DNA from: an uncultured Planctomycetia bacterium
GTDB taxonomy: Bacteria > Omnitrophota > Gorgyraeia > Tantalellales > Tantalellaceae
Direction: 5' to 3'
Assembly (NCBI GenBank): GCA_964565425.1
Contig: CAZMEZ010000002.1
Coordinates: forward strand, 13,953-77,952
DNA length: 64,000 nt
A program made the translations under genes and the position numbers. The notes below the pieces were generated by a model. It did not search any database. It saw nothing but the letters and a program-made list of their open reading frames with translations, and was not told the DNA's origin. Below are positions 18,001 through 62,002 of this stretch, piece after piece; positions within the stretch are counted from its first letter, which is position 1; every line of letters starts with the position of its first letter.

Positions 18001-21000
18001 ATAAAGGACAGGGATAACAGGAACCTGGTCACGTTCACCAGGGTGCATGTCCAGGACAGGATACCCGAGGGTTACGCGAGAGATCTCCAGAAGAGGGAGA
18101 TCCTGGTTTACAGGATGGATTCGGCGTATCCGCAGGAGATCTTCCGCCTGCCCCGCGAGATCAAGGACGGCGACGCATTCACGCTGGACAGCCTGGTGGG
18201 CGCCTTCAAGATCGGTAACGTCACGTTCGAGGACGACGGAAAAGGCGGCAGGCTGATGGTCAAGACCTACCTGGAGGGTTACAGGGACGGCCAGAACAAT
18301 GTCGTGGTCAAGATAGGCCGGTCGGGTTACGGTAACACGGTATACGAAGAGAAGATAATCGGCGAGAAGAGGCAGAAAATATATTACGAGTATTATCCGA
18401 ACGGCAGCCTCAAAAGCGTGAGGTACGAGGGTATAGCTTACAGGCCGGATTCGTTCGCGGACAGGAAGGCTTATCTTTTCGCCGAGCAGCACGGTTTTAT
18501 AGTGTACACGGAATACGAGCCTTCGGGCGATCCGCTGGTGAACGGGGCGCCCGGAATGATAAGGTTCGGGGACGGGACGGTCTCCCTGTACGAGAACGGG
18601 CACGTAAAACGGATAGTTTTCGGCAGGCCCCACAGGCCGATCGATGATCCCGTTGATCACGCGTTCGCCGAGCAGCACGGTTTCATCACCGAAAAGGTCT
18701 ATGACGGTTCGGCGGAGGAAAAGGATGTCCTGACCAGGTACAAGGACGGTTCCGAGCGAAGATACGCCACGGCCGATAACCTGGCCGCGGTCAGGGATGA
18801 ACGGCGCGGGATAATGACGGCCAGGGCCGTTGATCCAATAGCGCCCGGCAACCTCGTGGAAGCGGTTTTCGGCGAGAACCCGCACGCTTTTACGAGGCGC
18901 GACGACGTCCTGAAGGCGATGGAACCGCTGCGTTCGGAGGAGAAAGGCGAACAGTTCTTCAGGATAAGGGGCGAGCAGGGCAGAAGGTACTGGACGCGCA
19001 TCAGGGAACTTCTCGCGAAAATAGAACTTACCCTCCGGGAGAAAGAATATACGGATGAAAGCCGCGAGACGGTAAAGGCCTTTATAGACGAACTCGAGGA
19101 CCTCCAGTCCGTGCTTAACGATGATCACCTGGAAAAGTTGCTCCTGCTGCTTAAGGATTATCATTTCGCGAAGGCCCACGGGTTCATCAAACGTGTAGTG
19201 TACGAAGGCACCCGCCTGGACGAAAGATCCAACGGCGGACGGCCCCTGAGGATAGAATACGCGGACGGGACCTGGATAAGGTTCGATTACAGCGCCCGCC
19301 CCGGAGACCTTAACGCGATAGAGAAGGATATATACGCGAATAACGCGAACTGTTACCTCAAGGTCGTCAGGGAAAAGGGCAAGGAAGAGATCAGGTATAT
19401 ATACATAAGCAAGGACCCGCGTCATCTCAGGGACGACCATCTTATTTATGTGGGATACGTCGACCCGTTCATCGATAGCCGCTTCGCCAAAGTGCACGGC
19501 GGAGTGACGGCCATCATTTATGACGGCTCCTCCAAGAACGGCGGGAATATACTGAAGAAATACTATAAGGACGGGTCGCGCGAGGAGTTCGAGTACAAGC
19601 CGCTCGGGATGTACACTAAGACCCTTTACGAGATGACCTACGTCAAGGGGATAAAGAGGGAAGTGAAGAAGGTTTTCGAATATGACGCCAAAGACCGCCT
19701 GGTCAGGATAATCTATTACAGTAAGGACGAACAGAATATCGAGGATTACAGGGACGAGTTCTATTATGACAAGGGTTACATTTTCGCCCACAGGGGGATA
19801 GGAAGACCGATACCCGGCAACATTATAGTGATCGAGACCGGTGATACCGGCGTGCCGGCGGAGAACGGCAGGATAAGCGTTTATACGGACAGCCGCGTCA
19901 GCATAAAGAACGCGGAAGCGTTCAAGGAGGCAGGCCGTCCGCAGTTCGTGTTCGATTTCAACCAGGCGATAGAGGATCTCGCGGCGCGGGGCGGGCTTAA
20001 CGGGATATTGACGGACCGGGACAAAGCCCATGACGGGGCCATATGGGGCCGGGATCCTTCCGGATCGCGCATGCTGGAAAAAGCGGTATGGCACGAGGAC
20101 GTCCTCGGGACACTGTCCACGATACTTTCCGAAGAAAGGTTTGACAGCGTGTTCGGCCGGATATCCGGCGTATGGGAAGCCGCTGTTTTAAGGGACGGCA
20201 GGTGGGCGCTTGAATACAAGAATGACAAGCAGAAGATAGCTTCGCACAAGCTTGTCGCCGACGGCATATACGCCGAGATGGCGAAGTTCCAGTCCGTCCT
20301 GGAGGATCTCGAGGGTAAAGGCGAACGGATGGACCATTTCAGGTTCGAGTGCTGGCAGAGGATACTGGTCCTCAAGATAAAAGCGTGGGAACGCCTTGCT
20401 TACAGGGAACTCGTGCTCGAGGCCGAAAAGCCGGGAACATGGATGGACGAAAGGACCGGGGTCAGGTGGTTCAGGAACGTAGTGCTTTCCTTCAGCCGGA
20501 GGAACGGCTGGGATATAGTGTACGAAGCGGTATCCGGGGTAAAGGACGCTGAGGTGACACGGGTCCGGACGGTGAACGTGGACGGCGAAGAAAGACCGGC
20601 GGAGAACGAGATAGAAAATATGAGGATAGGAGGAGAGGAACACACCATAACCGTGGACATGGAAAGAGCCGGCACGCTGGATATGAGCCGCGCTTCTCTC
20701 AGGTTCCTCGTGAACACGAATAAAGGCGCGTGGCCCGAGATCTCCATAACGGCGGTCGACGGGGAAGGGCGCGAAAGGACAATGAACGTTCCGGCCGATA
20801 TAGTGAAGCCGGAAGACCACAGGGATTACCAGATCGTGGAATTCACGCCCGCGCCCGGCAACATGAGCGATTACACGGGCGATGAGGATTTTGACGCCTC
20901 CGGCGTGAGGTCCATCAGTATAGTTTTCAAGAAGACCAGCGCGAAGGGAGAGATCGGCATCCGCGATATAACGATAGAAAGACAGGGGCCGGCCGTAGAC

Positions 21001-24000
21001 GCCAAAAAGGCGGCGGGATCCGTGGATGTCAAGGTAAGCAGGGACGAATGGACAGCCGCCTATGACATGGACGGTTACATGTATTACGACCTGAGCGAGC
21101 GGGGAGAGTCGATAAACAGAGAGGGCGCCGCTATAAGGATCGAAGCCGCCCTGCCGAAGAAACTCGCGCGTCCCGGCACGATAGCGCGCGTCGAACTTAT
21201 CGATAGCCAGGGCAGGCCCAGGAGCGTCAATGTAAAGGTCGGCGCGGACAACGTCATAAGGGCCGAGATCGAAGCGGTATCCAGGAGCGATTTTGATCCG
21301 GGAAAAATACTCATGCTCAGGGTGAAGACCGATCTCGCCCAACAGGCGGCCAGGCCTTCGATCCTGGGCAAGCTGCTGGTGGGTCTGGCACTCCTTCTGC
21401 TGCCGGCGTATATATTCCGCAAGAAACTCGATGAATGGCTCAGGAAAAAAGTGTATCCGCGCTTTTCGAAAGACAAGAAGGACCCGGGCGAAAAGGTCAT
21501 AACGCACGCGAAAGTAAATAAATATATACGCGAACACCTGCCGGCGGTCCTCAAGGAGGCGAAGACCCCCGAAGAAACGCTCAGGGTCCTGGAGGAGCAT
21601 TATGAAGTATTGGCCAGTCAGAAGTACAGCCATGGCCGAAAGCACATAAGCGCGCGTTTCATACCGATAAAGGGACTTTTCAGGGAGACCGGCATCCAGG
21701 CCCATATAGGGCTGGGACGCGTCTATGGCGAACCGATAGTTTATATCGACGATTCCGGGATAAGCTACGAAAATATTCGCGAACATGAGTTCTACGAGAT
21801 CATGAAATGGGAAGAGAAGCGTCGGGAGCTCGGTCTTTCGCGCGCCCAGATGAGGATATGGATACTCGATAATATCGCGGAAGCCCGCGAATTCGGGCTT
21901 AAGATACACAATGAGAGCCAAGAACAGAACGCCGTGGCGCAAAAGGTGTCGGATGTCATATCTTACGGGAAGGACGTAGATTTTATCATAGCGGCCGGGC
22001 CGGACGGTGACGAGAGCGCGGACAAGGGCGCATCGCCGAAAAAGGAAAGGGCGCCGGCGAAAGGCGAAGCGCTCTCCAAGCGGGACGCGGTCCTGAACGC
22101 GGGATCCAAGGAGGCGGCGCTCAAAGCCATAGGCGTTCCCGAGAATCACTTCCATAAGAGGGATATTTCCCGCTTGCTCCGGGACAAGCAGGAGGTTGGC
22201 AAGAAAGGACGCGAGCACGGCATAACGCTCCGCGAGCTGCAGGAAAGGATAATCTTTATAAACGACGAGCTCGGCATAGATATACTTAACGGCACAGGTC
22301 TTACGCTTCTTAACAGGCCCATAAGCACCCTCAAGCAGAAGGCCGAGATCATAAGGGCCAATGACGATCTTCCGTCGGAATATCAACTGAAGATGACGAT
22401 CAAAAGAATGACGACCAGCCCCGAGAAACTGAGGGCCGAAATACAGGCCCTGCGCGACAAATACGGCATGGAACATCCTGCCGCGGAAAAAGAAGAAGTT
22501 GCGCCGGCGGATGACGAGGAAAAACCGTTGGTCTGGGCTTCGGAGTTCGAGAAACAGATGGCCGAAGGCGAAGAGGCCCGCGGCTCGGAAGAACCCGCGG
22601 AAGAGCCTGCCGAAGAACCGGCGGAACCCGCTGAAAAGATGACCAGGGAAGAGGCCCTGGAGACACTCGCCGGCGCGGTGGAGACCGTGAACCGCGCTAT
22701 CGGTAAGATGAAGGCCGTCCTGGACGCGGTGGAATGGAGAGAGGCAGAGGTTCATAAGGGATCGGACGAGACCGCGGAGGAAATAGAGGACGACAAGGCC
22801 GAGACGCTCAGGTATCTATGCGACAGCGTGGAAAAGGAGGTCCGTGAACTTCTGGAGCCGCGCAATAATAAGGAAGTGGCAGGCGAGCTCGAAGAATCCG
22901 AAAAGAAGATAAAGGCCGCGGCCGCCGTCCTGGGCGAAGAGGACCCCCGAGTGATAAAAGCCGTCGAACGGCTGGACCTGGCGCTCGGGAAGAATGATTC
23001 GCTGAAGAACCTTATCGAAAACCTTCTTGAATCCATCAGCCGGGTCAGGGCGCTCAGGGGCCTTGACGATACGGAAAAACGCAGGGCGGAAGAAGAGTTC
23101 TCCGGAAAGGCCAACGAGGCGATAGGCGCCCTCGACGGCCTGATCGACGAGCTCCAGGCGATAATAAGGTCCGCCGGTGACGAAGACGGGAATGTGGACG
23201 AGGTGATGGCGGGTCTGCCGGAAGAGGCCACTGATCAGGATATCCTGAACGCTCTTTCGGGCAGGCTCAATGATATAGAAAAGAGGGTAAATGGCCTTTC
23301 GGACGGGAACGGCGCCTGCAGGGCCGATATAGACGGGATAGGCGCCCTGCTTGACGGGATGAAAGCGGACTGGGAAGGGCATGACCTTTTCAGGGAGGCC
23401 GTGGAGAAGCTCGGCAAGGCGCGTGAACACGACCGGTCGGCCGGCGAGAACATACAAAATGTCCTCGAGAAAATAGAAGCCGGCCGCCTGCGCATAGCGG
23501 AAGAGATACTGCGCGCCGCCGAAAGGCGCGAAAATGCCCGGAAGAGGGACGCGTTCCGCGAAGACATGGAAGGCAGGATCGGCAGGCTGGACGAGATGAT
23601 CGAAGAGATAAGGGGTATTGCCGAAACGGCTATAGAGAAGGAATCCGCGGTCAAGGACATGGTGGACGGGCTTGAAGAGAAAGAGCTTACGGAAAGCGGG
23701 ATCCACGCCATCATAAAGCGGGTCGCGACAGCGGATGCCGATGTGAAACGCCTCAAAGAAAGGAACGGCGCGCTCGCCGGCGAACTTAAAGGCATAGAGG
23801 GCGGGCTAAAGGCGCTCGAAGCTTCCGAATTCGCGGATGACGATACGTTCAAACTCGCGAAGGATAGACTCGAGGACGCCCGCAGTTACAGCCGCACCGC
23901 CGAAGAGGAAGCGCGGCAGGCGCTGGAGACCATCGAAGCGGCCCTAAAACGCCTTACCGACGAGCTTCTCAGGGCGACGGGCAGACGCGAAAAAGCCGAG

Positions 24001-32976: not shown

Positions 32977-33120
32977 TGCGGGAGAGCGTCATATATTCAG
33001 GGAAAGGCGTACAGTTAAAGGAGGGTGGTGTGTTAGGAACAAAAGTTATCGACTGATAGGAAGCGTCCCTGCCCCGGGCTCTGCCAAGCGGCCCGCGGGT
33101 GGGGGCGTTTTCTCCGAGCG

Positions 33121-33158
33121 AGGCCCGGAAGTCATGACTCCGGGCCTCGGTCTTTTTA
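33121..33158 (+). terminator. Rho-independent terminator after ORF1
   Basis: Perfect 10-bp stem gaggcccgga (33,121-33,130) pairing with tccgggcctc (33,140-33,149), 9-nt loop, followed by ggtcttttt. Confidence 0.75.
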
Positions 33159-33209: not shown

Positions 33210-33224
33210 TAAAAAGTAAGTTTT
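33210..33224 (+). promoter_or_regulatory. Conserved 15-nt element TAAAAAGTAAGTTTT, copy 1, 29 nt upstream of the -10 box
   Basis: Identical 15-mer recurs at 51,138-51,152 upstream of ORF3, with 29 and 30 nt spacing to a TATAAT hexamer. Confidence 0.5.
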
Positions 33225-33230
33225 GATGAA

Positions 33231-33259
33231 TTGACGAGGATGGTCACAAATAGTATAAT
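33231..33259 (+). promoter_or_regulatory. Sigma-70-type promoter for ORF2: TTGACG, 17-bp spacer, TATAAT
   Basis: TTGACG at 33,231-33,236 and TATAAT at 33,254-33,259, about 64 nt upstream of the ATG at 33,324. Confidence 0.6.
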
Positions 33260-33323: not shown

Positions 33324-36300
33324 ATGCTGAGAGGCAGCAAACTTTTTAAGATAATATCCATAATAGTACTTGTCATTTTCGTCCATGAACAGGTCGGCTG
33401 GACTCAGGACGGACGGCCTGTATGGACTGCTTTTCGTGCTTCAAGTGAAATAACCCCCAGAGATCTGCCGCGAGGCATAAATATCCCTCATGATATCGGC
33501 GACGTCAGCGAAACCGTGATGAACGGTTCAGGCGAAGTCGTGATAAATATCCAGGACGCGCACGCGTCCTTATCTTCCCAGTATTCCATAGTTAACATCC
33601 TCGACAACCTCGTATCCAATTATGACGTTAGGCTCATAGCTCTCGAGGGAGCCGAAGGGGTAGTCGACACTTCGCTCCTCAGGACCTTCCCCGATAAAAG
33701 GGTAAGGAAAGAGACGGCGGAGTTCCTTATGAAAGAGGGCAGGATGAGCGCCGGCGAGTTCTTTGACGCGACGCGCGACGAGAACGATGTGGTCCTCTGC
33801 GGCGTGGAAGATGACGCGCTATATAACAGGAACGTCGAGAGCTTCCGCGGGATAATGGACCGGAGGGCGGCGTATTCCGAAGAGGTCGATAAACTCCTGG
33901 CGCAACTTGACGCCTTGTCCGCGAAGGTTTTTTCTCCCGGACTCAAGACCCTGGAAGAGAAGTCCAGGCTGCACAGGGAAGGCCGAATGAGTTTTTCGGA
34001 TTACTGGGAGAACGTGCGCCCGGTCGCCGAGAAAGAAGGTGTTTCCTTCGAAGGCCTCGCGAATACCGGTAAGTTGCTTCGCGCCATAGCGCTGGAAAAG
34101 GACATAAACTTCGCGCGCGCGAACCTCGAAAGAAAACAGCTTATCGACGCTCTCAGCGAGGATATGGACCGCACGGATATAGAGGACCTGGTCCTCAAGT
34201 CGCTCCTTTTCAAGGAGAACAGGATATCACAGGCCGATTATCACGCCCATTTGAGCCGGCTTGCCGCCTCTTACGGCGTCGGCATGGAAGGCTACGGGAA
34301 CCTGATGGCCTTCACGGAATACGTCACATTGTACGAAAGCATAGACATAATGGCTCTTTTCAGTGAGTTCTCCGCTCTGGAAGAGAGGATCCGCGAGGCG
34401 CTTTACCGTAACGGTGACGAGCGTGAACTTCACGGCTGGATAAGGCTCGTCCGGATGGTCGGGAACCTTTATAACGTGGAACTCTCGAACGACGACTGCG
34501 CGTACATAATGAGCCGCAGGAAAGATTGCGACGGCGCCGGGTGCGCCGGTTTCATAAAAAGGGCATGCCTTAAATACGGCGTTCCCATAGAAGGGGGGTA
34601 TGACGCCGGGCATGTATTCTCCGGCGTGGATGAGGCCCTGGGATTCTACGAGGTCGCCGAATCCAGGAATAACGCTCTCCTCGCGAACACGCTGAAGCGC
34701 ATGAAGGCGGAAGGAAAACACGTGGCCGCGCTAATAACGGGCGGGTACCACACGCGGGGCCTCACCGAGCTCATGCGCAAGAACAAGCTTTCTTACCTCG
34801 TTGTCGTTCCCAGGTTCGAAAAGGACAAAGAAAGGCCGTATATCGCCATACTCACCAACAAGAAAAAACCTTACCAGGAACTTCTTGAATCCGGTAAATA
34901 CCAGCTGGCCGTGAGGGCATATTTCGACGGTATGGACGAGGATAAATTCATCGAAACGGCCATATACGCGCTTTCGAACGTGGTCACGGGCGGCGGCGAC
35001 TGGCGTTACGAAGCGGAAAGATGGTTCCGCGAGTATTCGCGCGAATACGAACGAAGGAAAGGCATTTCGGAAAAAAGGATAGAAGGAAGTCTCTCACCGG
35101 GCGAATTCGCCAGGATACTCGGAGTGGGAGACTACGCGGGTCAAGGGCAGCTAAGGATCGAAACCTGGGAAAACACCGTTGTGGTGGCCAGGATCAAGGA
35201 TGACCAGGTCTCTTATTTCCGTTTGGACCGTGGCGAAGGCGGCGTACTGGAATCCCCCCGGGTACTGTCGCCTAGCCAGGGTCGCAAGATCCTCGCTGCC
35301 CTTGACCGTGCTAAAGCGGAGATAGAAGAGGAGCGGACGGCAGGGCGCGCCGTTGACCTCGAAAAAAAGATGGAAGGCCTGGCAAGGGCGATCAGGGAAG
35401 CGTCGGAAAAGAAAGACGTCACGCTTGCCGAAAAGCTCATGGAAGATAACGGCCTCCTCTACAGGGTCGTGGACAGGTTCGTTCACGCGGACGAGGTGAA
35501 GCCGGAAGATGTGGTCAAAAAACTGAAGGCCGACCCCGGCGTGTCGCTCGCGAAAAACTGGCGCGCCGACGAAGAGAACAGGCAGGCCGTGGCCGTGTTC
35601 GTGAACAGGGTCATCGCGGCCAGAGAAGGCGTCCGGGCGATAATCGACAAACTCACGTCGGACAGGGATTTAGCCGAAACCATAGCATTGTATTTTGTGG
35701 CGCTGAAGAAGGAGATAACCCCGGAAGGCGTCGCGACAGCCTTGCAATACAAGTTAAATGACCACCTGATGCGTGAGAGAGAAAGAATACCGTCGCTGGA
35801 GGATGCCATCGCAAGGTTCACGGAAACCGTTAAGAAGGTTTACGGGCCCGTAGAAGAAGCCAGGGACCGGTTCAGCCGCTGGCGGATCGCCGACAAGGGC
35901 AGGTATTCCGGCACGGTCTCCAACCTGGAGCTTGCGCTGGGCGATATCGCTTGTGCCGGAGGAAAGGATCTCGAGGAGTATGTTGAAAGGTTCAACGGAA
36001 CGGAGGAAAGACCCGTTCGCGCCCTGGAACTTGGTTCGGGACTCTTCTGCCCGATCTCCGGTTATCTTACAGGGAGCATCGAACAGGACATGTTCGTAAA
36101 ACATGAAGGCGGGTTCAGGAACATGGAGGTCGCGGCTCTCGATCCGCGGCAGGATACGGACGAGGAGCTGGGATTGTACCGCGGCAACGCCCTCAAGATG
36201 GATATGTTCGCCGACGGGGAATTCGACTATATATTCGCGTTCCAGGTCTTTAATGTCGAATGTTTTACGCAGTATTTTCCCGTGAACGTGAAGTTCTGGG

Positions 36301-39300
36301 AAGAGAATTTTCCGAAGGAGATGCTGAGCGAGGGGAAGTATTACAGGAAGATAGCGAAAGAACTATTCAGGGTCATGAAGCCCGGCGGCGAGATATACAT
36401 GAACGTGGGGCTGGCGGAACCCAACCTCCTTCTCAACCGTGTCCTGAGGGAAGAGGGTTTCGAGTGCGAATACTCTGACAATAGAGGGACGAACTGGGTC
36501 TTCACGAAACCGTCCGGTAAGGAGACGCCGCTCGAAAGGCGCAGGGAGCTGACGAGGAGGGCGATAACACGCGTGGCGGGGTTTCTGGGGCGGAAGATAG
36601 CCGTTCTGGAAAAATATTTCGCGGAACTGCCGAGAGAAGGAGATCTCGATGAAGAACAAGCCGAAGCGGCGGAGATGCTGCTTGATGCGTGCTGGGATAT
36701 CGTTAAGGGTGTAAGGCAAGATGATCTGTACGTTCCTTATTCCCCGGGACTGCAGCGTCTTCTCGGATGGGGGTCCCCCGGACACATATACGATATACCC
36801 GGGAACATGATATCCCTTACGGCTTATCTCCAGAACATAGTTCATGGCAAAACCGGGGAGATAGCTCCTAATGTTTACGCAGCCATGGCCGGGGAGATAT
36901 CAAATTTGAAATATGCGTTGAACGCTTTGAAGGGGACCCGTTCGGAAGATATTTATTTCTTCAAGCCCGCAGGTTATGACAAGGAATTCGTTAACATCAG
37001 GAACTGGGAAAAATCCCCGCCGCTCCATTCGAAAGAATGGGTGGCGTATCTTTTCGCGACCGGGCGGGAGGACTTGCTCAAGCGGGTCGAATTCAACGAG
37101 GAAGCCAAGAAAGCGTTCGACAAGTATGTGCTTTCGGCTAACGTTTTCAGCGACATGGTCCGCTCCGGCGGACTTGAGCCCGCCGAGGGCGAAGAAGAGA
37201 TGTTCGAGAGGGTGAAGGGATTCCTGGCGGAGACGGACCCGCGAAGGATTGAAGAGACGGGTAACTTCGCGAGGGTCAGGATAGCCCGGCGTCTTTCGGA
37301 GGAACGGGGAACGGGTATAATGCCTTTCGCCGGACCCTCATGGAAAAAAACGCCGCTTTACGCGGCCGCCGCCGGCGCGGTCCTCTCACTTGTTTCCGTT
37401 CTCGCGTTCGACGCCAACGTAGCGGGGGCGATAGCGGCGGGTTTCGCCGCGCTCACGGGTCTTTACGCCCTGGGTTTCTGGATATGGAAGGACCTCATAC
37501 TCGGCCGGGTGAAAAGCGGTAAACTTCAGTCGGCCTTCTACGGGCGCGGCGGGAACGAGACCATTTACGCTCCAGATAAGGTCGTCCGGGAGAGAGTAGC
37601 CGTCCTTTTCAACGAGCTTTCCAGGTCGCTCGCGGGAGGACGCGCGAGCAAAGGGTCACGCGCCCTTGCCGGCACGCGGATCGACGTCGAAAAAGGCCCG
37701 GCCGAGGCCGTCCTGGTGGACGAAAATTCCCCTAAAGAGGTCAAAGAAGCGATCGGGGACGATTACGCGGCTTTCGACAAGGGCAAGAACACGCTTTATG
37801 TCCTGGGGACGCTCGCGCGCGCTCCGGACTGGGTGCTCGCGACAGTACTCGCCCACGAAGCCGCGCATCATTTCACTAAGAGCGAGTTACGGGCAAACCT
37901 CTTTACCGCCCTTAATTTCAGGAAGGCCGTAAGGACCGCGCGCGGCCTGAGCTATACCCCGGAAGATTACCGGATGTACTCCTTATCAAGGGTCCCGGAC
38001 GTCAAGGCGGACGCCCTCCGGAAGAGCCGGCTCGCTGTCCTCCTGGCGGAAAGGATGAAGAAAGAGGGATATCCCGTAACGGATGACGATATAGCGCTTG
38101 TCGGCCGGGTTTTCCTGGTCCATGCCGTGGGCGGAGAGCGATATCCCGGGATAACACTGAAGATACTTGGGGACGCGAATGCCGATATCACGGACGAAGC
38201 AAAACAACTTGTAAGGTTCCGTCATTCCTATGCCGCTTTTACCGATCATCTTGCGCGTGCCGGCGAGGAAGAAATTTCCGTGGATGTCCTGGGTCGCGTT
38301 AATGAGCTTTTGCCCATGATCAGGCTGGTGGACGTTTTTGATGACGGGCAGAACAAATTAAAACGCGAAAAGCCCGGCAAGCAGCCGGAAAATTTCATCG
38401 AGGCGCTGAACTCGCTGGAGGAGACCTTTGCCGAAGAGGGGATAACCGCCAGGGGCGCCCTGAACGTTTTCAGGAATATGATGGGCGAAGAGGACCGGCG
38501 CATCCTGAACATAGCCGCGGAAGCCCGGAGGTCCAACGATATCCTTGTCTCGGACCACGTGCTCATGGATACCATGACGGGAGGAGAGAGGCTGCTCAAG
38601 ATGCGGGGAGGGCTCGATAGGGACCGGGGCGAGGGTGAATATGCCGTCATGACCTTCAGGATGGGGCTCCCGGAAGACCTGCGCAGGCAGATCAAACATT
38701 ATCTCGAGAACAACGGGTTTGACGTGGTGAGCGCCGGCATGACGAGCCGTCATATAGGAATGGACGAGGTGCTCAGGCGGTGGGGAACTGCCGGAGAGAT
38801 CAGAGAGACGCTCGACCGGATCGAAGCGGACGGAGTAAATATTCTCGAGGGTATGATAAACCTTGTCGCGGGGGATGGGGCGGGATTCGAAAAATGGGTC
38901 CGCAAGATCGAACAGGAACATCCCGAGACCGGATCCGTAAAGATGCTCAGGTTCTACATGAACGCGTTTGACCGCGGCATAGAAACGGTAATAATAAGGG
39001 CCCGCGTTCCGAGGGAAAGGCTTATCGAGGAATTCAACGCCCCCGCGAAGGCCGCCGGCATGAAGTTCCAGGATTTCTTCAGGCAGTTCGTCGCAGGGCA
39101 TGAAGACGCTTTTAAGGCCAAAGCGGGGACCCTGAGGGCGGAATTCATGGAACCGGAGCTTCGCCCGAGCGGCAAGCTGGCCGGCATATACAGGATGGGG
39201 GAAAAGCTTATCCCGCGCGAAAAGACAGGCCTTGCCAACGGTATAGACTGCCCGGCGTACTCCGAACTTCCCGGGAACCTTAAAGAGTATATTGAAGTCC

Positions 39301-42300
39301 CTTTCAGGGCCCCGATCATTTCGTCGGTTCTTGCCAACGGTATCAGCGGCGGCCTTCTTTTGGCGGCATACGTGTTCTTCAAGGGGCCGGTGTTGAAAGG
39401 GATATCCTTCATATCTAAGGCATTCTTTGCCGCGGTCATCATAACACTTTTCGCGGTATATTCACCGTCGAGGCTCCGGGCCCAGGAGACGACAGCGGAT
39501 AAAGGCAAGGACAGGACATCCGCTACGGATAAAGGCGACAAGCCCGGCAAAAAAGAGACCGATGGCGGAGAAGGCGACGGGAAAAAGACCGATGAGAAGA
39601 TCAAAAAAGCCGCGGCCGAGGAACTGCCGCTCAGGGACAGGAAAAAGCAAAGAGAGGTCCCGGCCGGAACACTGGTAAAAGCCGGTGATCTTATAGACGT
39701 TATCCTGGACTTTACCGACGCGGAGAGGGCTCCGGAATACCGCGGGAACGTCAAGTTTCTCCTGCTCATGACGATGATGGTCGAGAGCGACCAGTTCGCG
39801 GCGCGCCGGCAGTACAACGGGGGCCCCGCGCGGGGCCTGGCCCAGTTCGAACCGCCGACGGCGGCGGACGTCCGCGATTATATCAAGAGAAAGTCCGCGA
39901 ACAAGAAGTTCATTGAGGCCGTAAAAGGGGTTTTGGAGATCGGCTGGGAAGACAATATCGCGGCGATGTCCGGTGGAGATATCCTGGCAGCGATAAATGA
40001 AAGGATGACGGGCTTGGATGAGAGGATAAAAGCGGCCCAAAAGGAGAACGACGGGAAGAAGGCCGTCGGGATATCAAGGGAAAAAATAGACCTGGAAAAA
40101 GCCGTTGAGGGCGCGCTCGGCAGGGACTGGCAGGAAGAGCTTGCCGCTCTGGCGGGTGAAACAGCGCTGGAGAGGATACGCGCCCGGCTGGCGCAGCTGG
40201 AGAGGGAGATCGAAGCCGCCAAAGAAAAGGACGACAGAAAGACCGCGTCCGAGAAGGCGGAAGAAAAAACGGTTCTTGAAAGGGAAATGGAAAGGATCTT
40301 CCGGATAAGCTGGGAGGACAATCTTCTGGCGATGTCCCTGGAGGATATACGGAAAAAGATAGACGCGAGGGTCGCCGCTCTCACCGAAGAGATAACCGCC
40401 GCCGAGAAAGCGGGCGACAGGAAAAAGGCGGGAGAGAAGAAAAAGGAAAGAGCGGCCCTGCAAAGCATACCCGCCACAAGAGGGTTCAAGACCTTTATCA
40501 GAAATTACAGGTTCAGGATAATGATGGTGAAAACGCTCGGTGCCGACTGGAGCGCCGTATGCACTATGAGCGGCGACGAACTCGGCCGGCGCCTTGTCGC
40601 GAGCGACTTCTTTACGGCCCTCATGAGCCGGATCAATTACGCGAGGAGGCCCCAGCTCGTTCCTTCAAGAAAGGACCGGAAGGCCGTCTGGCGGTATTAC
40701 CTGGACACGTGGAGGCCGGGTAAGCCGGTTTCGCTTGAAAAGTTCCTGCAGCTTGCCGCGATCGTAGATAAAAGCGGCGTAATAGCGGGGAAAAAGGAAG
40801 AAGCCAAACCCGCCGCCGGAGTGCCCGGGGAAAAGAAAGAAGCCGGAAAAGAAGCCGTTACGGAAGCCGGACACGTTCCCGGGAAGAAGCCGGCGGCCGA
40901 GGAGATAAAGATAGCCGAACCGACTGCGCCTGTCGCTCCTCCGGAAGAAGCCCTGGAGGCGGCAGAAAAGCCGGCAAAAGAAGTCCCGGTGCCGGAGGTG
41001 GGAGCGAACATATTCATCCGCCTGTTGGCCGTTTTCGGAGGCGTTTTGGCTGTGATCGCCGGATTTTTCCTTGGAAGGTGGGCCGGCAGGCCGCCCCTCG
41101 CCAAACTCAAGAGATTCGCAAAACGGGCGAAACCCCGAAAAGTGCTGGAGATAGATCTCGGTAAGGACCTCCTGCAGGATAAGGAAATGATGAAGGTGCT
41201 GGCCCGTTCCGGCCACGAGATATCTATCGGCAGGATACCGAACACTTACCGGTATATCTTCCAGAAATGGGAAGAAGACGTCGCCTCCGGTGTTTTTGTG
41301 AAGTCCCTGGGACGGGAATATCCCGATTACAGGTTCGAGGGTCATACCCATTCGCCGGCCAGGACCCAGCTGGAATGGAACAGGATAAATATCCCCAGCT
41401 ACACGGATCTCATGTTCGGGATCTCCGGCCAATGGAGTTACATAATATCCGAAAAGGGCCTGACCTGGTTCAGGGCCGACAGGGGCCTTCTCGAAGTGTT
41501 CCGTGAACAATACGACGCTTTTATCCGGAAAGTTGAAACCGGGGATATGACGCCCGGGGAGGTCGTGACCGCGATGCGCGAGCGGTTCGAGGTGGACGTG
41601 GAGTTCGAGGAAATGGACCTTTCCTCCGGAGTAGCCCGCGGCCCCGCCGCGGCTATGCCTCTGAAAGAACTTATCGCGCCGGATGTGCCGTTCGATGATT
41701 ATGCCGTCAAGCTCGCTCCGGTCGCGGAGGAGATCCTTTTCTTCGCCGTGCCCATGGCCCTGGCGTATCTCGCCCTCGGGATCACCAGCATCTGGACGCT
41801 CGCGTTCATGGCCGCCATGCGCGGCGCGTTCTTCATGCTGCACCCCGAAAAGCGCGACATCATGACGATGAGCGTGACGGATATGGTATCGCTCATCGAT
41901 CCTTCGTACGGCGAACTCAGGAAACACGTTTATGCCGACTGGAAGTTCGTCCGGGCCCTGGCGAAGGGCATGGGGATAAGGGAGGACAGCGAGGAGATGA
42001 AGATGCTTCGCGTGATATCGATGGTCCACGATATGGGAGGCGTTCTGGGGCTCAAGCACGATGAGGATATCGAAAAAGAACTTATCGTGAAAGCGGCGCT
42101 CCACGGTATCGATCACCGGGGAATGGACCCGAACGACGTGGAAGCGGAACTTCTGAGAAAAGGCGTGAAACTCACAAAAGAGGAAAAACGGTTCCTCCCC
42201 AATATTGATCATCCCGCCAATTCATTAAGGATGCTCGATAAGATGGGGATCGCCGTACCGCCTATCGTAAGAGGAATAGTATTAAGACACATGGATGCCC

Positions 42301-45300
42301 CGTCGGAGGAAGAGCTCAGGACCTGGACGGAACAGGAAAGGCGTCTCTTTGCGTGTTTCGTGATAGCCGATGTCTTCGAAACGGGTAACAATTACTACAA
42401 ACAGGCGGGAGGATACTATAAGCACGAAGGCAAATTCGAGTCTATCGAAGATACGTTGGCTTTCATAAAAAGCAAGCGGTTCGATAACAGGCCGTCGATA
42501 AGCCGGTATATCGAAGCGGCGGAGAACGTGCTTTCTTCGGAAGCCATGGCGGAAGCGATACGCTTCAGCCGGACGCCGCTAAGCGGAACGGAATTCGCGA
42601 AAAAGATCATGCCGCGAGGCCCGCCCGCGAGCCGGATAGTGCCTTTCAGCGTAGCCGCGATGGGGGCAGTCATACCGGCTATCCCGGTCATGTTCCCCGC
42701 GATCGCCGCCGCGCCCGGGCTGTTCATACTGGCGGGTTCGATCTGCGTGGTGATGTTCCATTCCTTCGGCAACATCATCGCCGTCATAAAAGGCGTCATG
42801 CCGGCGGCGATAAAAAAGAAAAAGAGATCCGAAGACCTTGAGTGGATAGACCTATACGCTGCCAAATTACAGGCCGAGGGATCTCCCGGTTTCGTTCATG
42901 GGGCGGTCAACAGCGAAGAGGATATAAGGACGATAACGACTATAAGCGGAACGCCGGTCGATGAAGTCAACCGCCGAGCGCAGCCCGGGAATTACTCTAT
43001 GAGCGGGTTCGCGGAGGATTTTATCGAACAACTGGTATCCGACAACGGGCTCGTCCGCGGTTTGGGCACTAACCATAAGAAATTGGCGGATCTGTTGAAA
43101 AGAGCCGCAGGAAAAATAAAAGACGGCGGTGAAGCGACCTTCAAGCATAAAGGCATGCGGTTCGGGATCAGACGGATACCAACAAAGGGAAGCCAGAATT
43201 CCATTTTTGCAGATTATGGTTGGAGCTGCAGTTATCGTCTTAGAAACTTGGACCAGGGGACCAGTATACTGTTCGCCCCTAATTCCGTCGCCGAAATAGA
43301 ACGACTGGGTTTTTACGAGGCCGGGACGATAAACGGCAAGGAGAACAAGTATGCCGTTGATCCCGAGCTTCTCTGGAGGATGTTCAACGATGTCGGCTAT
43401 CGAGTTTCGGAAAAAACGGAGGAAGAAGCGCTGCGGGACCAGGCGGAAGCCATAAAAGAAAAGGAGGGATGGGATTCCATAGAGGTCTACGAAGTTGACG
43501 AACTCAGGGCCGAATACCCGTATATAGTAAGGGAAGCGCCAGCCGTGTCCCGCGGGAAAGTTCCCTTCTATGCCGAGATGGAAGAAGGTTATTACGGAGA
43601 GCCGCCCGTACGTTTCGCGTATGAGGTCAGAAAGAAAGGGCCCTGGACGGCCGTAGTAAGGGTGGAGATATATGAAAGGGACGCGGTCGAAGAAGATACG
43701 GGAATGCGGGCGAGTTTCTACAGGCACAGCCTGCATCTTTTTAGGGGCAGAGAAGATCTGTTTTTGGACGAGTCGTATTCCCTGGACAGTCTCGGGGAGA
43801 AATACGGGACCAATATAGCCGAGATCCTGCAAAAGTCGGGTTTTCCCTTCCGAATCGATATCGGTCCCGGAGAAAAATGGTTCTACGACGAGATGATGAA
43901 AAAGGATGTCGGAACGTTGATGCGTCTCGGTGTCCTGTGTTCGCTTCGGTCGGGCCTTTATACGGATACGCTTCGGGACAGTATGAAGATAAAGCTGACC
44001 AGGGATATGTCGGACTCGAGAGGCTTATTGTTCCGGTATTATATCGTCCCCGTTGAAAATGACGGGACCATGGAATTCGTGGCTTTGGAGCGGCAGAGAG
44101 ACCTGATCTTTCGGGCTCTGTCTGAAAAGACGGGTGGAATGCCGACAGCCCCAGGCACAATATTTCTCTTAAAGGAACTTATCGCTCAGCGCATGTCCTT
44201 CGCCGAATATGCCGCCAAAGTCGCCCCGTGGGTGGAAGAAGCGGTCTTCCTGGCCCTGCCGATGATCATATCGCATTTCGCGTTCGGCCTGGCAAGTTTC
44301 TGGACGGTAGTATTCATGGCCTTATCGCGCGCCGTATTTTTCTTCCTGCACGAAGGCGCGAGGCCCCATGCGCCACCGGCGCTTTGGGAGACGCCTTTAA
44401 AAGTGGCGATAACGGGTTTTCTCGTATCTTTGATGCCCGTGGCCATATTCTCGGCATTAACTTCATCCTTTAACCTTTATCCTTTAACCTTTATCCTGGC
44501 GGCCACATTCCTCTCCGGCCTGATACACCTCCGCGAGAACATCGCCGCGCTCAAGAAAGGCGTCATGCCGGCGGCGATACCGGCGGGCGAAGAAGCGCCT
44601 GACCCCTGGCGGGATCTGACCCCGGACGCGCGCGAGATGTTTACCAATATCGCAAGCAAGGAGTTCTTCCTTAAAGACGCCGAAAGAGGGGAGCTGACGG
44701 CGGAGAGATACCAGCGGGATCACGATGAGGAAGACCCCGAAAGGATACTGGCGCTCTTCGAAGAGCTCGCCGGTAAAGGATATTTCGGTATCACGAAGAG
44801 CGACGACGGCAAGACCAGGTACGGTCTGTCGGAAAAGGGCGGCTCCATGGTCCCGTTGGCCGTCGAAGACATGATAAAGGTATGGATCACGGGTATGAAG
44901 GAGAACGACCTGGCCTGGAGACGCGATCACATAAGGGACCCGGGTTTCGGTTCCATGTTCAGGACGGCGCCGGCATACAAACAGCCCGATCCCGGGAGAA
45001 TGACCCTGTTCGGAAAATACTCCGATGAGGTGCTCGACGTGATCATGGAGCAGGTCAAGGAAGAGGTTAAGCTGTACGAGACGGGCAGGGGGAATGACAC
45101 GGCGTTAAGCGCTCCGCTCGGCGTCATGGAGGGTCTTCTCGAAAAGTGCGGCGATATGCGCCGGACCGATCTGGTCGAGAAGATCGTGGAATACCTGATG
45201 ATGGCGCCTTACTCCGAGAACGGGAGGGTCAGGGCGGCTTTCCAGACGTTCTACATGCATATAGTGGCGATAGATCCCGAACGGGCAAGGACTTTTCTTT

Positions 45301-48300
45301 TCTATCTCATGACGCATTTCGCCGAATTCGGGGACGCCATAAGGGAAACGGACAATCCGGTATTCGGTGTAATGGATTTCCTGCACAGCGCGGGAGACGA
45401 GAACTTCTATTATTTCCTGAGGAGGATATCCGCGTACACTTTCCGGGACCATTCCGGACAGGTCAATGTCGGGCCGAACCATCCGCTGAGATGCCGCACG
45501 AGGTGCGGCACCTACGGTCCGGACCTAGAGGGGGTCATAAGGGATTCCATACACAATAACCTCGGCGTTTACGTGCTGGGCCTCCTGGAAAGGTACCTGG
45601 AATTCTGCGAGACGGGCGATCACGGGATACTCGCCGACGAGAACTACCCGGTGGATGTCTTCAAGAACGACGAATTCCCGTCCCGGGACGCGGTCTTCCC
45701 GGAAGACACCGTTAAACTGTACGCGGTCCCCGAACCGGAGGATACGTATCCATCGAACAACAGGGGCATTATCAGAGAGATATTCGCCCAGCTGGAAGGC
45801 GACCTCGGGCGCCGAATAGGAGCCAGAGGGGAAACAAAGTGGGAAAAACTGAGGAACATTACCGACGAGCAGCTGCAGCTTGTATACGATGCCGTTAACG
45901 CGAAACTGGGGACCAGCATGCAGGCGCAATATTCGGGTTATTCCTTTTCAGGATACATATACGCTTATCGCGAGCTTTCCAGAAGGTACAAGAGAGTGGC
46001 CAGCATAGATACTCTCACCGGCAATCTCTTCGGCGTGGCCGCAAGACACAGGATCGCCAATGAAGCCATAGCCGGCCAGCGCTGGGCCGAAGACGACCAC
46101 CCGGTTTACGAGGCGATAAGAGGCAGCGATCCGATCGCGGCCCTGAAAACGATAACGGGATCGAAAAAGAAGATACGCGACAAGGTTTTCAGCGGGACAC
46201 TGGCGTACGACCGGTACGAGGTCATGGAACAGTTCGAACAGGAATGGGGCAGGGATGACGTGGGCAACGCTTACGGGGGCGCCTGGGTAAGGGACGATCT
46301 CGTAGGTTTATACATGGCTGATAATGTCCTCACCATGGTGCAGAACATGCACATAGAGAACATATCGAAGGAATTCATGGAAATAGACGGGTCGAATGTC
46401 GTAAAGGCCCTGGAATATCTCAGTGTGCTGGCCGAATTGAGTTACACGGAGGGCCTTATCTCCAGGTCCTTCAAGGACCATATCGTCACGCTGCTGGACC
46501 AGAAGGGCCTCGATGTTTCGGTGGCCAGGGACGTCATAAATTTCATGCAGCAGGAATTCGTCGAGATAAGGAATTATATCGTCCAGAACGCCGAGAACTA
46601 TATACACGCCATGCTCGATGCCGAGGGAATATACGGTAAAAAGAGAGAGGAAGAATTCGATAGGAGGCTAAACGGCATTTTGAACAGCGACAGGGTGTTC
46701 CGTTCCGCCAGGGCGCTTATAACCAGGCTCGGCAAGTACGCCGAAACGCGGGAAGGAACGTTCATGGAAGCGGCTACCGCCGAACCGTTCGAAGAAGAGC
46801 CCAAACTCTTCGGGGGTACGGTCCCGGCGGAGACCGTAGAAAAAACCGTTTCGGCCGGAAGGTATAAACTTTCGGCTAAAGGGCTTGAGCTGGCCAGGAC
46901 GTCTCTGGAAGGCATCCCCATACCCGAAGGTGTGATAATCCCGGCGACGGTATCCGATAAAGATACGGGCGGACTTGCCGAAAAAGGCCTGAAGACGCTG
47001 CAGGATCACCTGGACGGGGTCGAAGGCCTGAGGGGCATGAAGTTCGGTTCCGCCGAAAACCCCCTTGTGGTTTCGGTGAGGTCGGGAGCCTACATAGTGA
47101 TGCCCGGACAGATGCCCACGATAGCGAATGTCGGACTTTGCCGTGACACCATGGACGGGTTCACCGCCCGGCTGGTAAAACGCGGCGTGGATCCCCGTGA
47201 CGCGCGGTGGACGGCATGGGATTCGTATTCAAGGTTCCTGCAGAGTTACGCCGTTTCCGTTCTCGGCATAAGCGAGCAGCATTTTGACGCCCGCAGGGAA
47301 AAAATGCTGGAGGACGGGGGTGTGACCGATGTGCGTGAACTTCCGCTTGATAAGATGAAGAGCATGGCCGGCGGGTTCGAAAGGATCATTACCGACATAG
47401 CCGGTGAAGATAAACTGCCGGTGACCGCCGGGGAGCAGTTCAAGTATTGCGTGGAAGCCGTCAAAAAATCGTGGGCCGAATCGATCGATTACCGCGATAA
47501 CGTGGGGATAAAAGGCAAATGGCCGGGAACGGCAGTGATAATACAGCGCATGGTCTTCGGCAACATAAACAAGGATTCGGGCGCGGGCGTCATAAACTCG
47601 CGCATGGTGAACGTGCGAAAACTGGGCCTGGAGGGCGATTTCCTGTGGTTCGGACAGGGGGACGATATCGCGCAGCACAGGGCCGAGGACCTGGTCCAGA
47701 TACAGGATGTCCCGGATGATACGCCATGGAAGAAAGACCTTGAGAAATACGCCGAACTTATCGAAACGTCCCTGGGGACACTGGCCGAGATAGAATTCAC
47801 CGTGGAGCTGGGCAAGGTATACATACTCCAGGTCAGGGACGCTTATGTCGATATAAGGGCTTCGGATTACCTGTTCATTCCTTCAGAAGGAGATCTCCTG
47901 GCCCGCCGGCAGCGGGTCATACCGGCTTCCGGCGGAGCTTACAGGGGTATGGTATATATTCTCCACGGACGCGCGCCCGATATGAGAGAGATAGACCGCA
48001 TGTATAAAAGATCCAGGAAAGCCGGCGGCGACGGCGTGATAATAGTGGCGGACGACCTCGGCCCGGAACAGCTCGGTAAGCTTATAGTCAGGGACGAGGA
48101 AGGGCGCCTTAAGATAGGCGGTCTGATAACGAGGCGCGGAGGGAAACTTTCGCACGCCGGCGATATAGCCAGGAACCATCGCATGGCCGCGATAGCCAAC
48201 GTCAAGGATATAAAGTTCCCGAAGCATGTCAGGAAGAAAAGGAGTTTTATTATAAACGACAGGCGTGTCCAGGAAGGCGAAATGCTTTCCATTTCCGGGA

Positions 48301-51087: not shown

Positions 51088-51116
51088 TTGACATATAGCC
51101 CTATTTGCGATATACT
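51088..51116 (+). promoter_or_regulatory. Sigma-70-type promoter upstream of ORF3: TTGACA, 17-bp spacer, TATACT
   Basis: TTGACA at 51,088-51,093 and TATACT at 51,111-51,116. A second TATAAT at 51,183-51,188 lies 30 nt downstream of the conserved 15-mer. Confidence 0.5.
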
Positions 51117-51137: not shown

Positions 51138-51152
51138 TAAAAAGTAAGTTTT
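51138..51152 (+). promoter_or_regulatory. Conserved 15-nt element TAAAAAGTAAGTTTT, copy 2, 30 nt upstream of TATAAT at 51,183
   Basis: Identical to 33,210-33,224. Confidence 0.5.
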
Positions 51153-51224: not shown

Positions 51225-54200
51225 ATGAATAAGCCCAAAAGATCCCCAATCTTTAAGGCAGTAAGCCTTTTTCTGGTGCTGGCGTTCTCATTATACAATG
51301 TGAGCTTCGCCGTCACGCAGGACAATATCGGCAAACCGGATACGGTCGATGTGACCGGGCCTCTTTCGGTAGAGGACATCGGCATAGCGATCGATTGCGG
51401 GACGATAAAGTCCAGGTTCAACGGTGACGCGGACAAGGTCATCGTTCACATCCAGGACGCGCACTGTAACTACGAAGCGCAGTCCAACATAAACAGGATG
51501 CTGGACCAGATCACTAAGGAATGCGGGATAGGCATCATATCGGTCGAGGGCGCGGAGGGGATCGTCGACACGACATGGTTCAGGGCATTTCCGGACGCCG
51601 AGATACGCAAGGAAGTGGCGACTTACTTCATGAAAAAAGGCGAGATAACGGGCGCCGAATTTTTCTCCATAACCTCCGATTTCCGTGGAACCATCTTCGG
51701 GGCGGAGACCAGGGACTACTACGTGAGGAACCTCAGGGCCTTCACGGACGTCTACCCCTACAAGGAGACCATCGAGAACTACTTCACCAACGTGCGGACG
51801 GTAGCCAACCGGCTGAAATCCGTGGTATATCCCGCTCAGCTCAGGGAACTGGACCAGAAGATAAGGGCTTTCGACGATAAGGATATAGAGCTCAGCGACT
51901 ACGCGGAATACCTGAACAAGATGACGCGGAAATACCGCGTGGACCTCAAGGATTGCGGGAACTTCGATAAGCTCACGCAAACGCTGGAATACGAGAACAA
52001 GATAGACTTCGATACCGTCGACCAGGAAAGGAGCGAATACATAGACGTTATCAGCAAGAAGCTGTCCAAGGAGGACATGACGGAACTGGTGACGCAGAGT
52101 ATCAGGTTCAAGAAGGGTCACATAAAAGCCGTTGACTTTTATTCCTATCTCAGGGACCTCGCGAAGGATAACAGCGTCGATATGGTCCATGAATACCCGA
52201 ACCTCTTCTATTACTATATTTACACCAAGCTTTACGACGGGATCGACAACGAGGGACTTTTCAGGGAGATAGACCTTGCGGAGATCCGCTTAAAGGACAA
52301 ACTCTTCAAGGACGAGACGCAGAGGAAACTGGATAAGTATTCCCGCATGGTCGACATGTTCGTCGACCTCACTAACATAGAGCTTACGAACGAGGATTAC
52401 GACACTTTCAAGGGTTATTCCAAGGAATTCTCTCTCGAGGACACGCTGGAGTTCTTCAAGGGGCTGGTCGACAAGTATAACCTGAACTACGCTATCGACG
52501 GACTTCCTGTCCAGATCGGCGAGAACATCCCCAAAATGGTGGATTTTTACGAGATCGCCATAAAGAGGGACAATGCCCTGATAGACAACACGCTGGATCA
52601 GATGAAGAAAGAGAAACAGGACAGGTGCGTCCTTATAGCCGGCGGTTTTCACACCAGGGGCATAAAGGACATACTCGAGAAGAAAGGCGTTTCTTACGTG
52701 GTCGTCACGCCGAAGATAACGAAGAACGTGGACACCCCGTATATCAAGGTGTTGACCAACCAGAGGACGTCGCTCGAGGACATAATCACCGAAAGCGCGG
52801 TCGTCCCCGGTATAGGGATAACCGCTTCGCGCGAGGAGATAGTCCGGCCGAAAGGCGACATGCTGAGCCCGCTCGCGAGGGTGGCGTACACGATACCCAT
52901 GTATCTCAACAAGCCCGGGGACCTGAAGGAACTTTCCGACGCGGTGGGCGCGGTTCAGGGGAGATCCCTCGAGGACGCCGCGGTGGAGTCTTACAAGGAA
53001 ATGATAGCCGCTCTCGTAAGGGGCTGGCTCATGAAGGTAAGAGAGAACGCCGCCCCGGAGGTATGGGCGACGGCCATAGAGAACTGGCATCTCCTTCTGG
53101 GCGCGTATCTCAAGAAATACGAGGAAGAAGCCGCGAAACAGGGCGTCCAGGTCATAGAAGGGCTCCGCGTGCCGGCGGCGATGCTTACGGCGGAACAGGC
53201 GGCGGCGGTAAGCCAGGAGTTCAGGGCTATATTCGAGGAGGAGGTCAAGAGAAGCAAGACCCCCGGCGCCGAAGCCATAAGGCTGGACGACAAGAACGAT
53301 CTTTATGAATCGCTTACGCCCGAGGAGGCCGCGGCGCTCGATGAGGTAATAGCGGGGATAATGTCGAAGATAGATACTACCCGCGAAAGCCGTTTGGCCC
53401 ACACGACGGAGATAATGGTCGAAAACGTCGACGCAAATACGGGCAAGACCGTTAAAAAAGCCATGGAAGTCTGGAAACTCCCGGGCTTCAGGGAAGCCAT
53501 AGAGAAATATAATGCCGCGCACGAAGCGCGGATACCGCTTGATGTGCGAGTGCACCCGGGCACCGGCAGGGGGACCTGGACGCGCATGTACATCGACGAG
53601 AGGGATTTCGCGGCGCTGGACGAAACGCAGGCGCAACGCTTGGCAAATCACGAATATTATCATATACTAAACCCTGATAAGAGCGAGAAGGACGCGATCG
53701 ATGTCCAAAAGGACGACCTCATGGACGTGCGTCTCGCTTTCATAGAAGCGGAAAAAGAAAGACTGAGACTCAAGGCCGAAGAGGAGAAGAGAGTGAAGGA
53801 AGCGCTTCTCACCAATTCGAAAGCTATGGCGGAAGCCGCCGACAAGGGCGTAGGTCCCGACATCGTCATGATCGTAAGCTCCACCGACGAGCAGGCCGAT
53901 TTCTGGCAGAAACGCCTTACCGGCAAGGATGCCGTTCACGGCTCGGGCGAGATCGTGAAGACCGGCGCCGTCGTTCTTTCCGTGCCGGAATCCAACTGGA
54001 AGGGCGGGGCCGGGAACGGTCTGGGGACGCTGAACGGTTTTGTCCAGGCCGCGAGAAAAGCGCGCGACCTGAAACTTATAGATGTCCCGGACGACGCCCC
54101 GATAGAGGAACTTATAAGGGTTTTCATGTTTTATATCAGGGGCAAGAGCTCCTTCATGTTCCACACGGCGGGTAAAGGCACGCGCACCGCGCCGCTTCCC

Positions 54201-61040: not shown

Positions 61041-61068
61041 TACAGCTGTAAGCTTTAAGCTGTAAGCT

Positions 61069-61953: not shown

Positions 61954-62002
61954 CGAGTGACGGGTGGCGCGTGACGGGTTACTGTAAAATAGAAAGGGTA
62001 AA

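Follow-up and report, generated by a model that had tools for sequence, protein, structure and literature searches.

The DNA analysed here is a 64-kb window (by which we mean the whole stretch examined) of contig CAZMEZ010000002.1, nearly filled by three giant open reading frames (ORFs) that run in the same direction on a purine-rich plus strand. ORF1 (1-32976, plus strand) is open at the first base of the window, with no stop in the first 30 nucleotides, and its true length must therefore exceed 10,991 residues. ORF2 (33324-51002, plus strand) encodes 5892 residues according to the ORF list and its translation, and ORF3 (51225-59897, plus strand) encodes 2890 residues when counted from the ATG at 51225; the longest frame for ORF3 begins at a GTG at 51171, but the ATG, which has an AAGGAG 7 nucleotides upstream, is the likelier start. 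Homologues are annotated nearly all as Candidatus Omnitrophota metagenome-assembled genomes. Both ORF2 and ORF3 begin with the same module, made up of a probable Sec-type signal sequence, a short variable linker and a domain of about 470 residues whose core is split by an insert. This head module, which probably represents a new family of a known superfamily of hydrolases and ligand-binding proteins, is the subject of the present analysis.

The two copies are clearly paralogous. When the first 600 residues of ORF2 and ORF3 were compared by BLASTP with compositional adjustment, a single colinear alignment was obtained, with 161 of 529 positions identical (30%), 52% positives and an E value of 2e-85, spanning residues 5-521 of ORF2 and 25-539 of ORF3 in the numbering from the GTG (7-521 from the ATG at 51225). 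A sequence-only reading of this DNA had proposed a colinear similarity of about 520 residues, and the alignment bears it out; the strings quoted in its favour, I/HIQDAH, EGAEG[IV]VDT, RKE.A.[FY][FL]MK.G..[ST]GAEFF, GG[YF]HTRG and PYI..LTN, are all present. The limits it gave, 33520-34900 and 51430-52770, do lie inside the shared block, but the block begins earlier, at 33336 and 51243, and takes in the hydrophobic stretch at the N terminus. In a full-length BLASTP comparison the similarity is confined to the head module, and because no further likeness between ORF2 and ORF3 was found, the idea of a common start followed by complete divergence is correct. No third copy of the module was found in the window on either strand. 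The expectation of a gene family with further members also held: a profile of the module, searched against 1.84 billion representatives, matched 9,917 protein clusters at E<=1e-3, and 6,743 when the limit was set at E<=1e-30.

The layout of the module is best described from ORF2. The N-terminal half of the core (residues 52-163; 33477-33812, plus strand) carries D78 and H80 within IQDAH, E108 within LEG, and E162. A helical insert of about 270 residues comes next (164-434; 33813-34625, plus strand), with invariant E258, R270 and Y333; it is modelled by AlphaFold2 as helices over residues 164-433 and has no significant match to any known domain. The C-terminal half of the core (435-525; 34626-34898, plus strand) carries R448 within SRNNA, the GGYH motif (G473-G474-x-H476), P496 and Y506, and its model consists of a helix at 435-463 with strands at 467-473 and 490-496. 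Family conservation stops near residue 525, and the junction between the module and the passenger behind it lies around ERPYIAILTNKKKPYQELL. The ORF3 copy occupies residues 50-521 (51372-52787, plus strand), where the counterparts of D78, H80, E108, R448 and H476 are encoded at 51456, 51462, 51546, 52566 and 52650. Conservation was counted in an alignment of 262 members, among them a distant branch of stand-alone modules, described below. D78 and H80 are each kept in 260 of 260 sequences, E108 in 259 of 259, R448 in 249 of 249 and H476 in 247 of 248, and these five candidate active-site positions are invariant across sequences down to 25% identity. A further alignment of the family shows Q86, G109, G473 and G474 among the other invariant positions. 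As a separate observation, a helix-loop-helix motif, G[KR][IM]Sxx[DE][FY], occurs three times in the ORF2 module (residues 138-147, 219-228 and 298-307; about 33735-34244 of the window). It shows a weak likeness to troponin-C EF-hands (E 0.1) and to phycobilisome-linker repeats (E 0.01) and is without the calcium ligands of an EF-hand.

In front of the domain, the signal-like segment of ORF2 (residues 1-27; 33324-33404, plus strand) has basic residues at R3, K6 and K9, a hydrophobic core, IISIIVLVIFV, at residues 10-20 and a polar HEQVGWT, while that of ORF3 (residues 1-29; 51225-51311, plus strand), MNKPKRSPIFKAVSLFLVLAFSLYNVSFA, contains a possible SFA|V signal-peptidase site at which it may be cleaved. 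Across 232 members the hydrophobic core has a median length of 12 residues (quartiles 11-13), and the net charge is +2.9 upstream of the core versus -0.7 downstream, a bias seen in 96% of members. The polar stretch after the core is also conserved, for example as Q.xGWAQ.G.PVW, with NVSFA|V in ORF3. For cleavage and topology a rule of thumb was applied to the sequence, and sites of the GWA|Q or SFA|V type can be read on that basis. The segment had been taken for a membrane anchor; the core of 11-13 residues, the basic n-region and the candidate cleavage sites make a Sec signal sequence more likely, and the segment looks like such a signal, cleaved or not, rather than a 20-residue anchor. With this anatomy, the module is therefore predicted to be exported.

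The predicted fold places the domain in the superfamily that unites Tiki, TraB, ChaN and the erythromycin esterases (ETTG). Its core is alpha/beta, with a central parallel beta-sheet flanked by helices, and it shows the arrangement by which the superfamily is recognised: an acid-x-His at the end of strand 1 (D78 and H80 end strand 72-78), a Glu at the end of strand 2 (E108 ends strand 104-107), and a conserved basic residue, R448 on helix 435-463, ahead of the His of a GxxH motif, H476, which follows strand 467-473. Structural matches include Bcr135/136 (2qgm, 2rad), EreC (6xcq), ChaN (2g5g), the TraB-family chain 8bqs_DQ, HopBA1 (5t09) and RRSP (5w6l), with PMT (2ebf) lower in the same list; these families correspond to the Tiki/ETTG grouping (PMC6254334). 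Generic matches to P-loop kinases, methyltransferases and helical bundles come next, with Z a little lower (about 7 to 8.3). The spacings agree as well. In the module 2, 28 and 28 residues separate D78 from H80, H80 from E108 and R448 from H476. E3900/H3902/E3930 with R4001/H4030 in RRSP and H85/E113 in Bcr135 belong to an experimentally essential site of two His, two Glu and an Arg (PMC6254334), so that the His-to-Glu spacing of 28 is identical and the Arg-to-His spacing is 28 in the module versus 29 in RRSP. As in the family of RRSP and Bcr135, the conserved residues are predicted to lie at the C-terminal ends of strands or on the preceding helix.

Profile searches help to define how far this relationship goes. 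Cofac_haem_bdg (PF04187) is matched in 4 of 34 members, with a best score of 16.2 bits (cut-off 27.7) and solely over 45 C-terminal profile positions, 159-203 of 213, and DUF5694 (positions 135-179 of 185) and TIGR00261 traB (179-217) also match below threshold; these weak matches support the fold because they are in register over the Arg/GxxH block. The earlier suggestion of a TraB/GumN-like C-terminal block is right insofar as the sub-threshold matches fall there, but PF01963 itself gives no match at E<=10 for ORF2 and ORF3 or at E<=1 for 34 members, and no Pfam scan reports Erythro_esteras, even at E<=1-10. Membership of the Pfam families TraB/GumN, ChaN or Erythro_esteras is thus not upheld, all hidden Markov model checks falling below their own thresholds, and what survives of the proposed TraB/GumN/ChaN-like identity is the fold class, by predicted fold and residues, and not those families proper. 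Because no Pfam or NCBIfam model reaches threshold, the domain is better described, from its sequence and model, as probably a new family of the superfamily, distinguished by a helical insert.

The sequence-only reading had also drawn on HExxH motifs further along both proteins. These lie within a few bases of the positions given for them, HEAAH at residue 1511 of ORF2 (37854-37868) and HEYYH in ORF3 (53649-53663), and each protein has a single one, which is mildly unexpected for its composition (chance expectation 0.118 in ORF2 and 0.025 in ORF3). They were cited as consistent with a TraB/Tiki fold, a link that fails. Tiki-type enzymes use a 2His/2Glu site and not HExxH (PMC6254334), so the motifs say nothing about the fold of the head module; they lie about 1000 (ORF2) and 290 (ORF3) residues past it, and BLASTP finds the two regions non-homologous to each other. 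The ORF3 region matches PhageMetallopep below its cut-off (E 0.014) and a homologue search with it found nothing, while the ORF2 region matches no metallopeptidase family and its HEAAH is kept in one homologue (L021, as THEAAHYF). Both may be small, minimal zincin domains, unrelated to one another.

The distribution of the module says more about its role. Among the best 150 of the 9,917 clusters, the module starts at residue 1-73 in 150 of 150, in proteins of up to 7,834 residues. Species-representative genomes hold at least 582 module loci, nearly all in Omnitrophota, and an in-frame stop lies just upstream in 82 of 83 genomic module copies. Fifty-nine module ORFs extend past the 10-kb flank; the closed ones measure 598-3,749 residues, and the shortest of these may be broken by frameshifts. 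Module-headed genes can also follow one another in tandem, the next start lying about 160-200 nucleotides after the preceding stop, and the window shows a like array. In three loci (L016, L073 and L079) the module and a SecA-like domain are found in one ORF.

The distant branch, with 27-40% identity to the stand-alone module P0040, adds a split version of the same arrangement. About 35 of its 79 genes are stand-alone modules of 500-560 residues, and 27 of 33 stand-alone modules have an ORF of 500 to >2,600 residues on the same strand within -40 to +45 nucleotides downstream. These downstream ORFs have an AXA-type, signal-peptide-like N terminus of their own, and the split passengers carry FBPase class V, a complete PPDK, PFK with GAPDH and aldolase, or a metallophosphoesterase. 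In one locus (L002) the stand-alone module gene lies directly ahead of a gene for 4,868 residues. That the two are fused in one lineage and adjacent in another speaks for module and passenger being functional partners. A proposed link to the Sec translocon, based on yajC beside the stand-alone P0040, was dropped when it proved not to be conserved in 79 related loci. The split loci also merit notice in their own right. In L133, L134, L150, L159, L161 and L163, which are metagenome contigs, proteins of 1,000-1,700 residues with classical signal peptides lie directly 3' of stand-alone modules and embed complete FBPase class V, PPDK, or PFK, GAPDH and class II aldolase, which suggests, from sequence, that glycolytic enzymes are exported or membrane-associated in these loci.

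Our preferred reading, to which we give a probability of roughly one half, is that the module is an exported, catalytically competent hydrolase of the Tiki/Ere type that heads or accompanies giant proteins and acts on or with its passenger. The domain itself most likely has hydrolase activity, as a peptidase or as an esterase, because the active-site residues of characterised superfamily members are invariant here. The Sec-type signal sequence would take the module out of the cytoplasm, and the module would then work in the periplasm or at the membrane surface, where it may hydrolyse or partner the passenger in maturation, in cleavage into units or in release from the signal anchor. Such extracytoplasmic action on or with the passenger is suggested because the module is always the first domain and is either fused to the passenger or encoded directly upstream of it.

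A number of results weigh against this reading. The first acid of the module is an Asp, where the superfamily has Glu, and some members of the superfamily are not enzymes at all (ChaN binds haem, and PMT C1/C2 are without the site). Pfam gives nothing for ORF2 and just noise at E>=0.003 for ORF3, all below curated cut-offs; nothing in NCBIfam reaches threshold, TIGR00261 scoring 9.6 bits against a cut-off of 178. PDB sequences searched with profiles, one built on the whole module and one on a core-only construct, returned no Tiki member, solely the EF-hand-like and phycobilisome-linker-like resemblances of the helix-loop-helix motifs. Alignment by hhalign gave a probability of 1% against E. 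coli YbaP alone and 26% against a low-diversity alignment of 10 sequences, the latter as a local match out of register with the LEGAE strand shifted. In a Foldseek search of the PDB nothing was found at E<=0.001, long-helix proteins dominated, and HopBA1 ranked 40. Signal cleavage and topology depend on a rule of thumb, cleavage of the passenger by the module is something that we infer, and passenger enzymes of the cytoplasmic type, dependent on ATP or NAD, sit awkwardly with an exported location.

Other explanations must be considered alongside it. The composition of the region is unusual, with a strong purine skew and numerous long antisense ORFs, and this could raise the concern that the likeness of ORF2 and ORF3 reflects chance or composition, or that the giant ORFs are not real genes. 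So little probability attaches to this concern that it can be set aside: it is refuted by the E value obtained under compositional adjustment, the size of the family and the residue conservation, with thousands of homologues that keep the motifs, and further opposed by two confident AlphaFold2 models and by the absence of Pfam matches in the antisense ORFs under the module. It is also conceivable, but quite improbable, that the N-terminal helix is a true anchor and the bulk of each protein cytoplasmic, the module tethering multi-enzyme proteins of sugar metabolism to the inner face of the membrane. In its favour, the passengers contain PGM/PMM, PPDK, PFK, GAPDH, aldolase and FBPase, enzymes that as a rule depend on ATP, NAD or sugar phosphates of the cytoplasm, ORF3 has no other hydrophobic segment, and giants with only transmembrane (TM) helices are read as facing the cytoplasm in a 2026 preprint. 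Nevertheless, the charge bias across the core predicts an N-in, C-out orientation, a stable span would need a longer core than one of 11-13 residues, and the split passengers bear classical AXA-type signal peptides. The Tiki, PrgY and ChaN proteins that have been characterised lie outside the cytoplasm.

Three further possibilities accept an exported module and differ over what it does. It could be an active Tiki/Ere-type hydrolase with an external substrate, an effector of surface-exposed giants whose N-terminal place is merely historical and whose targets would be prey or host envelope components, acylated polysaccharides, peptides or small molecules. We consider this unlikely, though not to be neglected: effector domains get shuffled, whereas the module is at the extreme N terminus in all 150 of the top matches and in 82 of 83 genomic copies and is never internal, and its linkage to a large passenger is retained even when it is a separate gene. 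Rather less weight is given to a non-catalytic head, a plug, docking or ligand-binding domain that is exported first and anchors, orients, aids translocation or recruits partners. Its constant position behind a signal sequence would suit such a part, as would the non-enzymes of the superfamily (e.g., ChaN and PMT C1/C2), the sharing of one ORF with SecA-like domains in three loci, and the large helical insert with invariant residues of its own. However, non-enzymes typically lose the 2His/2Glu set, as PMT has (PMC6254334), and the five positions are invariant here, while the sole specific link to a Sec accessory, the yajC gene beside P0040, is not kept. The boldest possibility, in our estimate about as doubtful as a non-catalytic head, goes beyond the preferred reading: a dedicated N-terminal leader hydrolase may cut its own giant passenger after Sec export, in cis when fused and in trans when encoded by the upstream gene, so freeing it from the membrane or dicing it into separate enzymes. 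This would be a previously unrecognised maturation system and a bacterial counterpart of the leader proteases of viral polyproteins; if true, it would account for the use that Omnitrophota make of glycolytic and sugar-nucleotide enzymes outside the cytoplasm.

Among systems already known, the closest include the erythromycin esterases (EreC, 6xcq; Bacillus cereus Bcr135/136, 2qgm/2rad) and the TraB/GumN/PrgY/Tiki proteins (PF01963; 8bqs_DQ; E. coli YbaP), although the module falls far below the thresholds of PF01963 and TIGR00261. TraB and PrgY are proteins of about 260-400 residues with C-terminal membrane helices and are not the heads of giant proteins. ChaN (PF04187, Cofac_haem_bdg; 2g5g) is a ligand-binding protein of 255 residues, and the module shows no hint of haem binding. 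RRSP (DUF5) of MARTX toxins, PMT C1/C2 and HopBA1 are Tiki-fold domains in secreted toxins; RRSP sits inside the toxin chain as an exchangeable effector for delivery into host cells, in contrast to a module that is obligatorily N-terminal or a separate gene, and MARTX toxins are autoprocessed by a separate cysteine protease domain. The giant proteins of Omnitrophota have themselves been described (West-Roberts et al. 2023, Seymour et al. 2023 and a 2026 preprint on complete genomes), in the same organisms and for the same kind of gene, with SecA-like, PGM/PMM and PPDK domains, signal peptides and TM helices. In that literature the N-terminal regions "generally lack identifiable domains" save for C39/S8 peptidases, the ORFs are poorly conserved, and the presence of ATP- and NAD-dependent enzymes in giants predicted outside the cytoplasm is a puzzle. 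TraB is unmentioned in the West-Roberts et al. 2023 and 2026 preprints, a search that did not extend to other superfamily names or to Seymour et al. 2023, and the conserved head module and its fold appear to be undescribed in these papers. The superfamily is known; what appears new here is a very large family with a new insert and an obligate N-terminal architecture, fused or adjacent.

The remainder of the window agrees with giants of the "Archaeovorin" type reported for the phylum, in that ORF1 has SecA-like, ORF2 PPDK-like and ORF3 PGM/PMM content. The SecA-like domain of ORF1 (approximately residues 1025-1627; SecA_PP_bind, P-loop_SecA and SecA_DEAD) is divergent, and many hydrophobic clusters lie behind it (1936-2369, 7106-7129, 8303-8915, 9709-9845 and 10367-10580). 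The N terminus of ORF1, beyond the window, may carry a head module too: by the register of L079, its start would lie about 516 codons before the window, leaving just enough room for one. Exact-sequence searches with ORF3 from either start matched no public contig. A Pfam scan of ORF2 finds solely PPDK_N and PEP-utilizers, near residues 4566-4995, and additional hydrophobic clusters are present at 1344-3736. In ORF3, Pfam identifies PGM_PMM domains I-IV at residues 1601-2132 (GTG numbering), and the N-terminal hydrophobic segment is the sole one in the protein. ORF1 (residues 10606-10991; about 31816-32973) and ORF2 (5527-5892; about 49902-50999) also share a C-terminal module of about 370 residues, at 26% identity and E 1e-16, which has no Pfam match and no counterpart in ORF3; giant proteins may thus have a conserved tail besides a conserved head.

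Features between the genes point to separate expression. Near-consensus sigma-70-like promoters (11 of 12 matches) lie upstream of ORF2 and ORF3 at 33231-33259 and 51088-51116, a GC-rich hairpin followed by a T-run, like a terminator, is found 3' of ORF1 at 33116-33158, and the giant genes look like separate transcription units. Two exact copies of the 14-mer AAAAAGTAAGTTTT, at 33211-33224 and 51139-51152, are the only ones in 64 kb (0.04 expected); both are intergenic, upstream of ORF2 and ORF3, each 30-31 nucleotides ahead of a TATAAT box. It may be a regulatory site common to the two genes, and it was found in 0 of 164 related loci. Many very long ORFs are also seen on the minus strand inside the giant genes, for example at 16837-20094 (1085 residues), 20188-22755 (855 residues) and 52290-53663 (457 residues), and they coincide with GC and AT skews of the coding strand that are both strongly positive. 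These antisense frames are probably shadow ORFs of a purine-rich coding strand, because three such frames beneath the module have no Pfam match, and in giant genes they are a trap for gene callers. Beyond ORF3 (60132-63601, plus strand), there are two ABC-transporter permease genes and a gene for a GH113 glycoside hydrolase that bears an F5/8 type C (discoidin) domain, and GC falls to 46% at 60-62 kb; these neighbours fit the reported link of giant genes to carbohydrate import and degradation.

A conserved, probably catalytic and obligatorily N-terminal domain in about 10,000 protein clusters gives the giants a common defining feature, and it provides a sequence marker for the true starts of giant genes that are fragmented in metagenomes. 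For the Tiki/TraB/ChaN/Ere superfamily, most of whose bacterial members are without a known substrate, it means a large additional branch, set apart by an unusual helical insert. At about 470 residues, the module is a small, expressible target with five clear sites for mutagenesis, and it opens direct tests of whether giant proteins undergo export, anchoring and cleavage, and by what route. It thereby offers a first handle on the export or maturation of the very large proteins of Omnitrophota.

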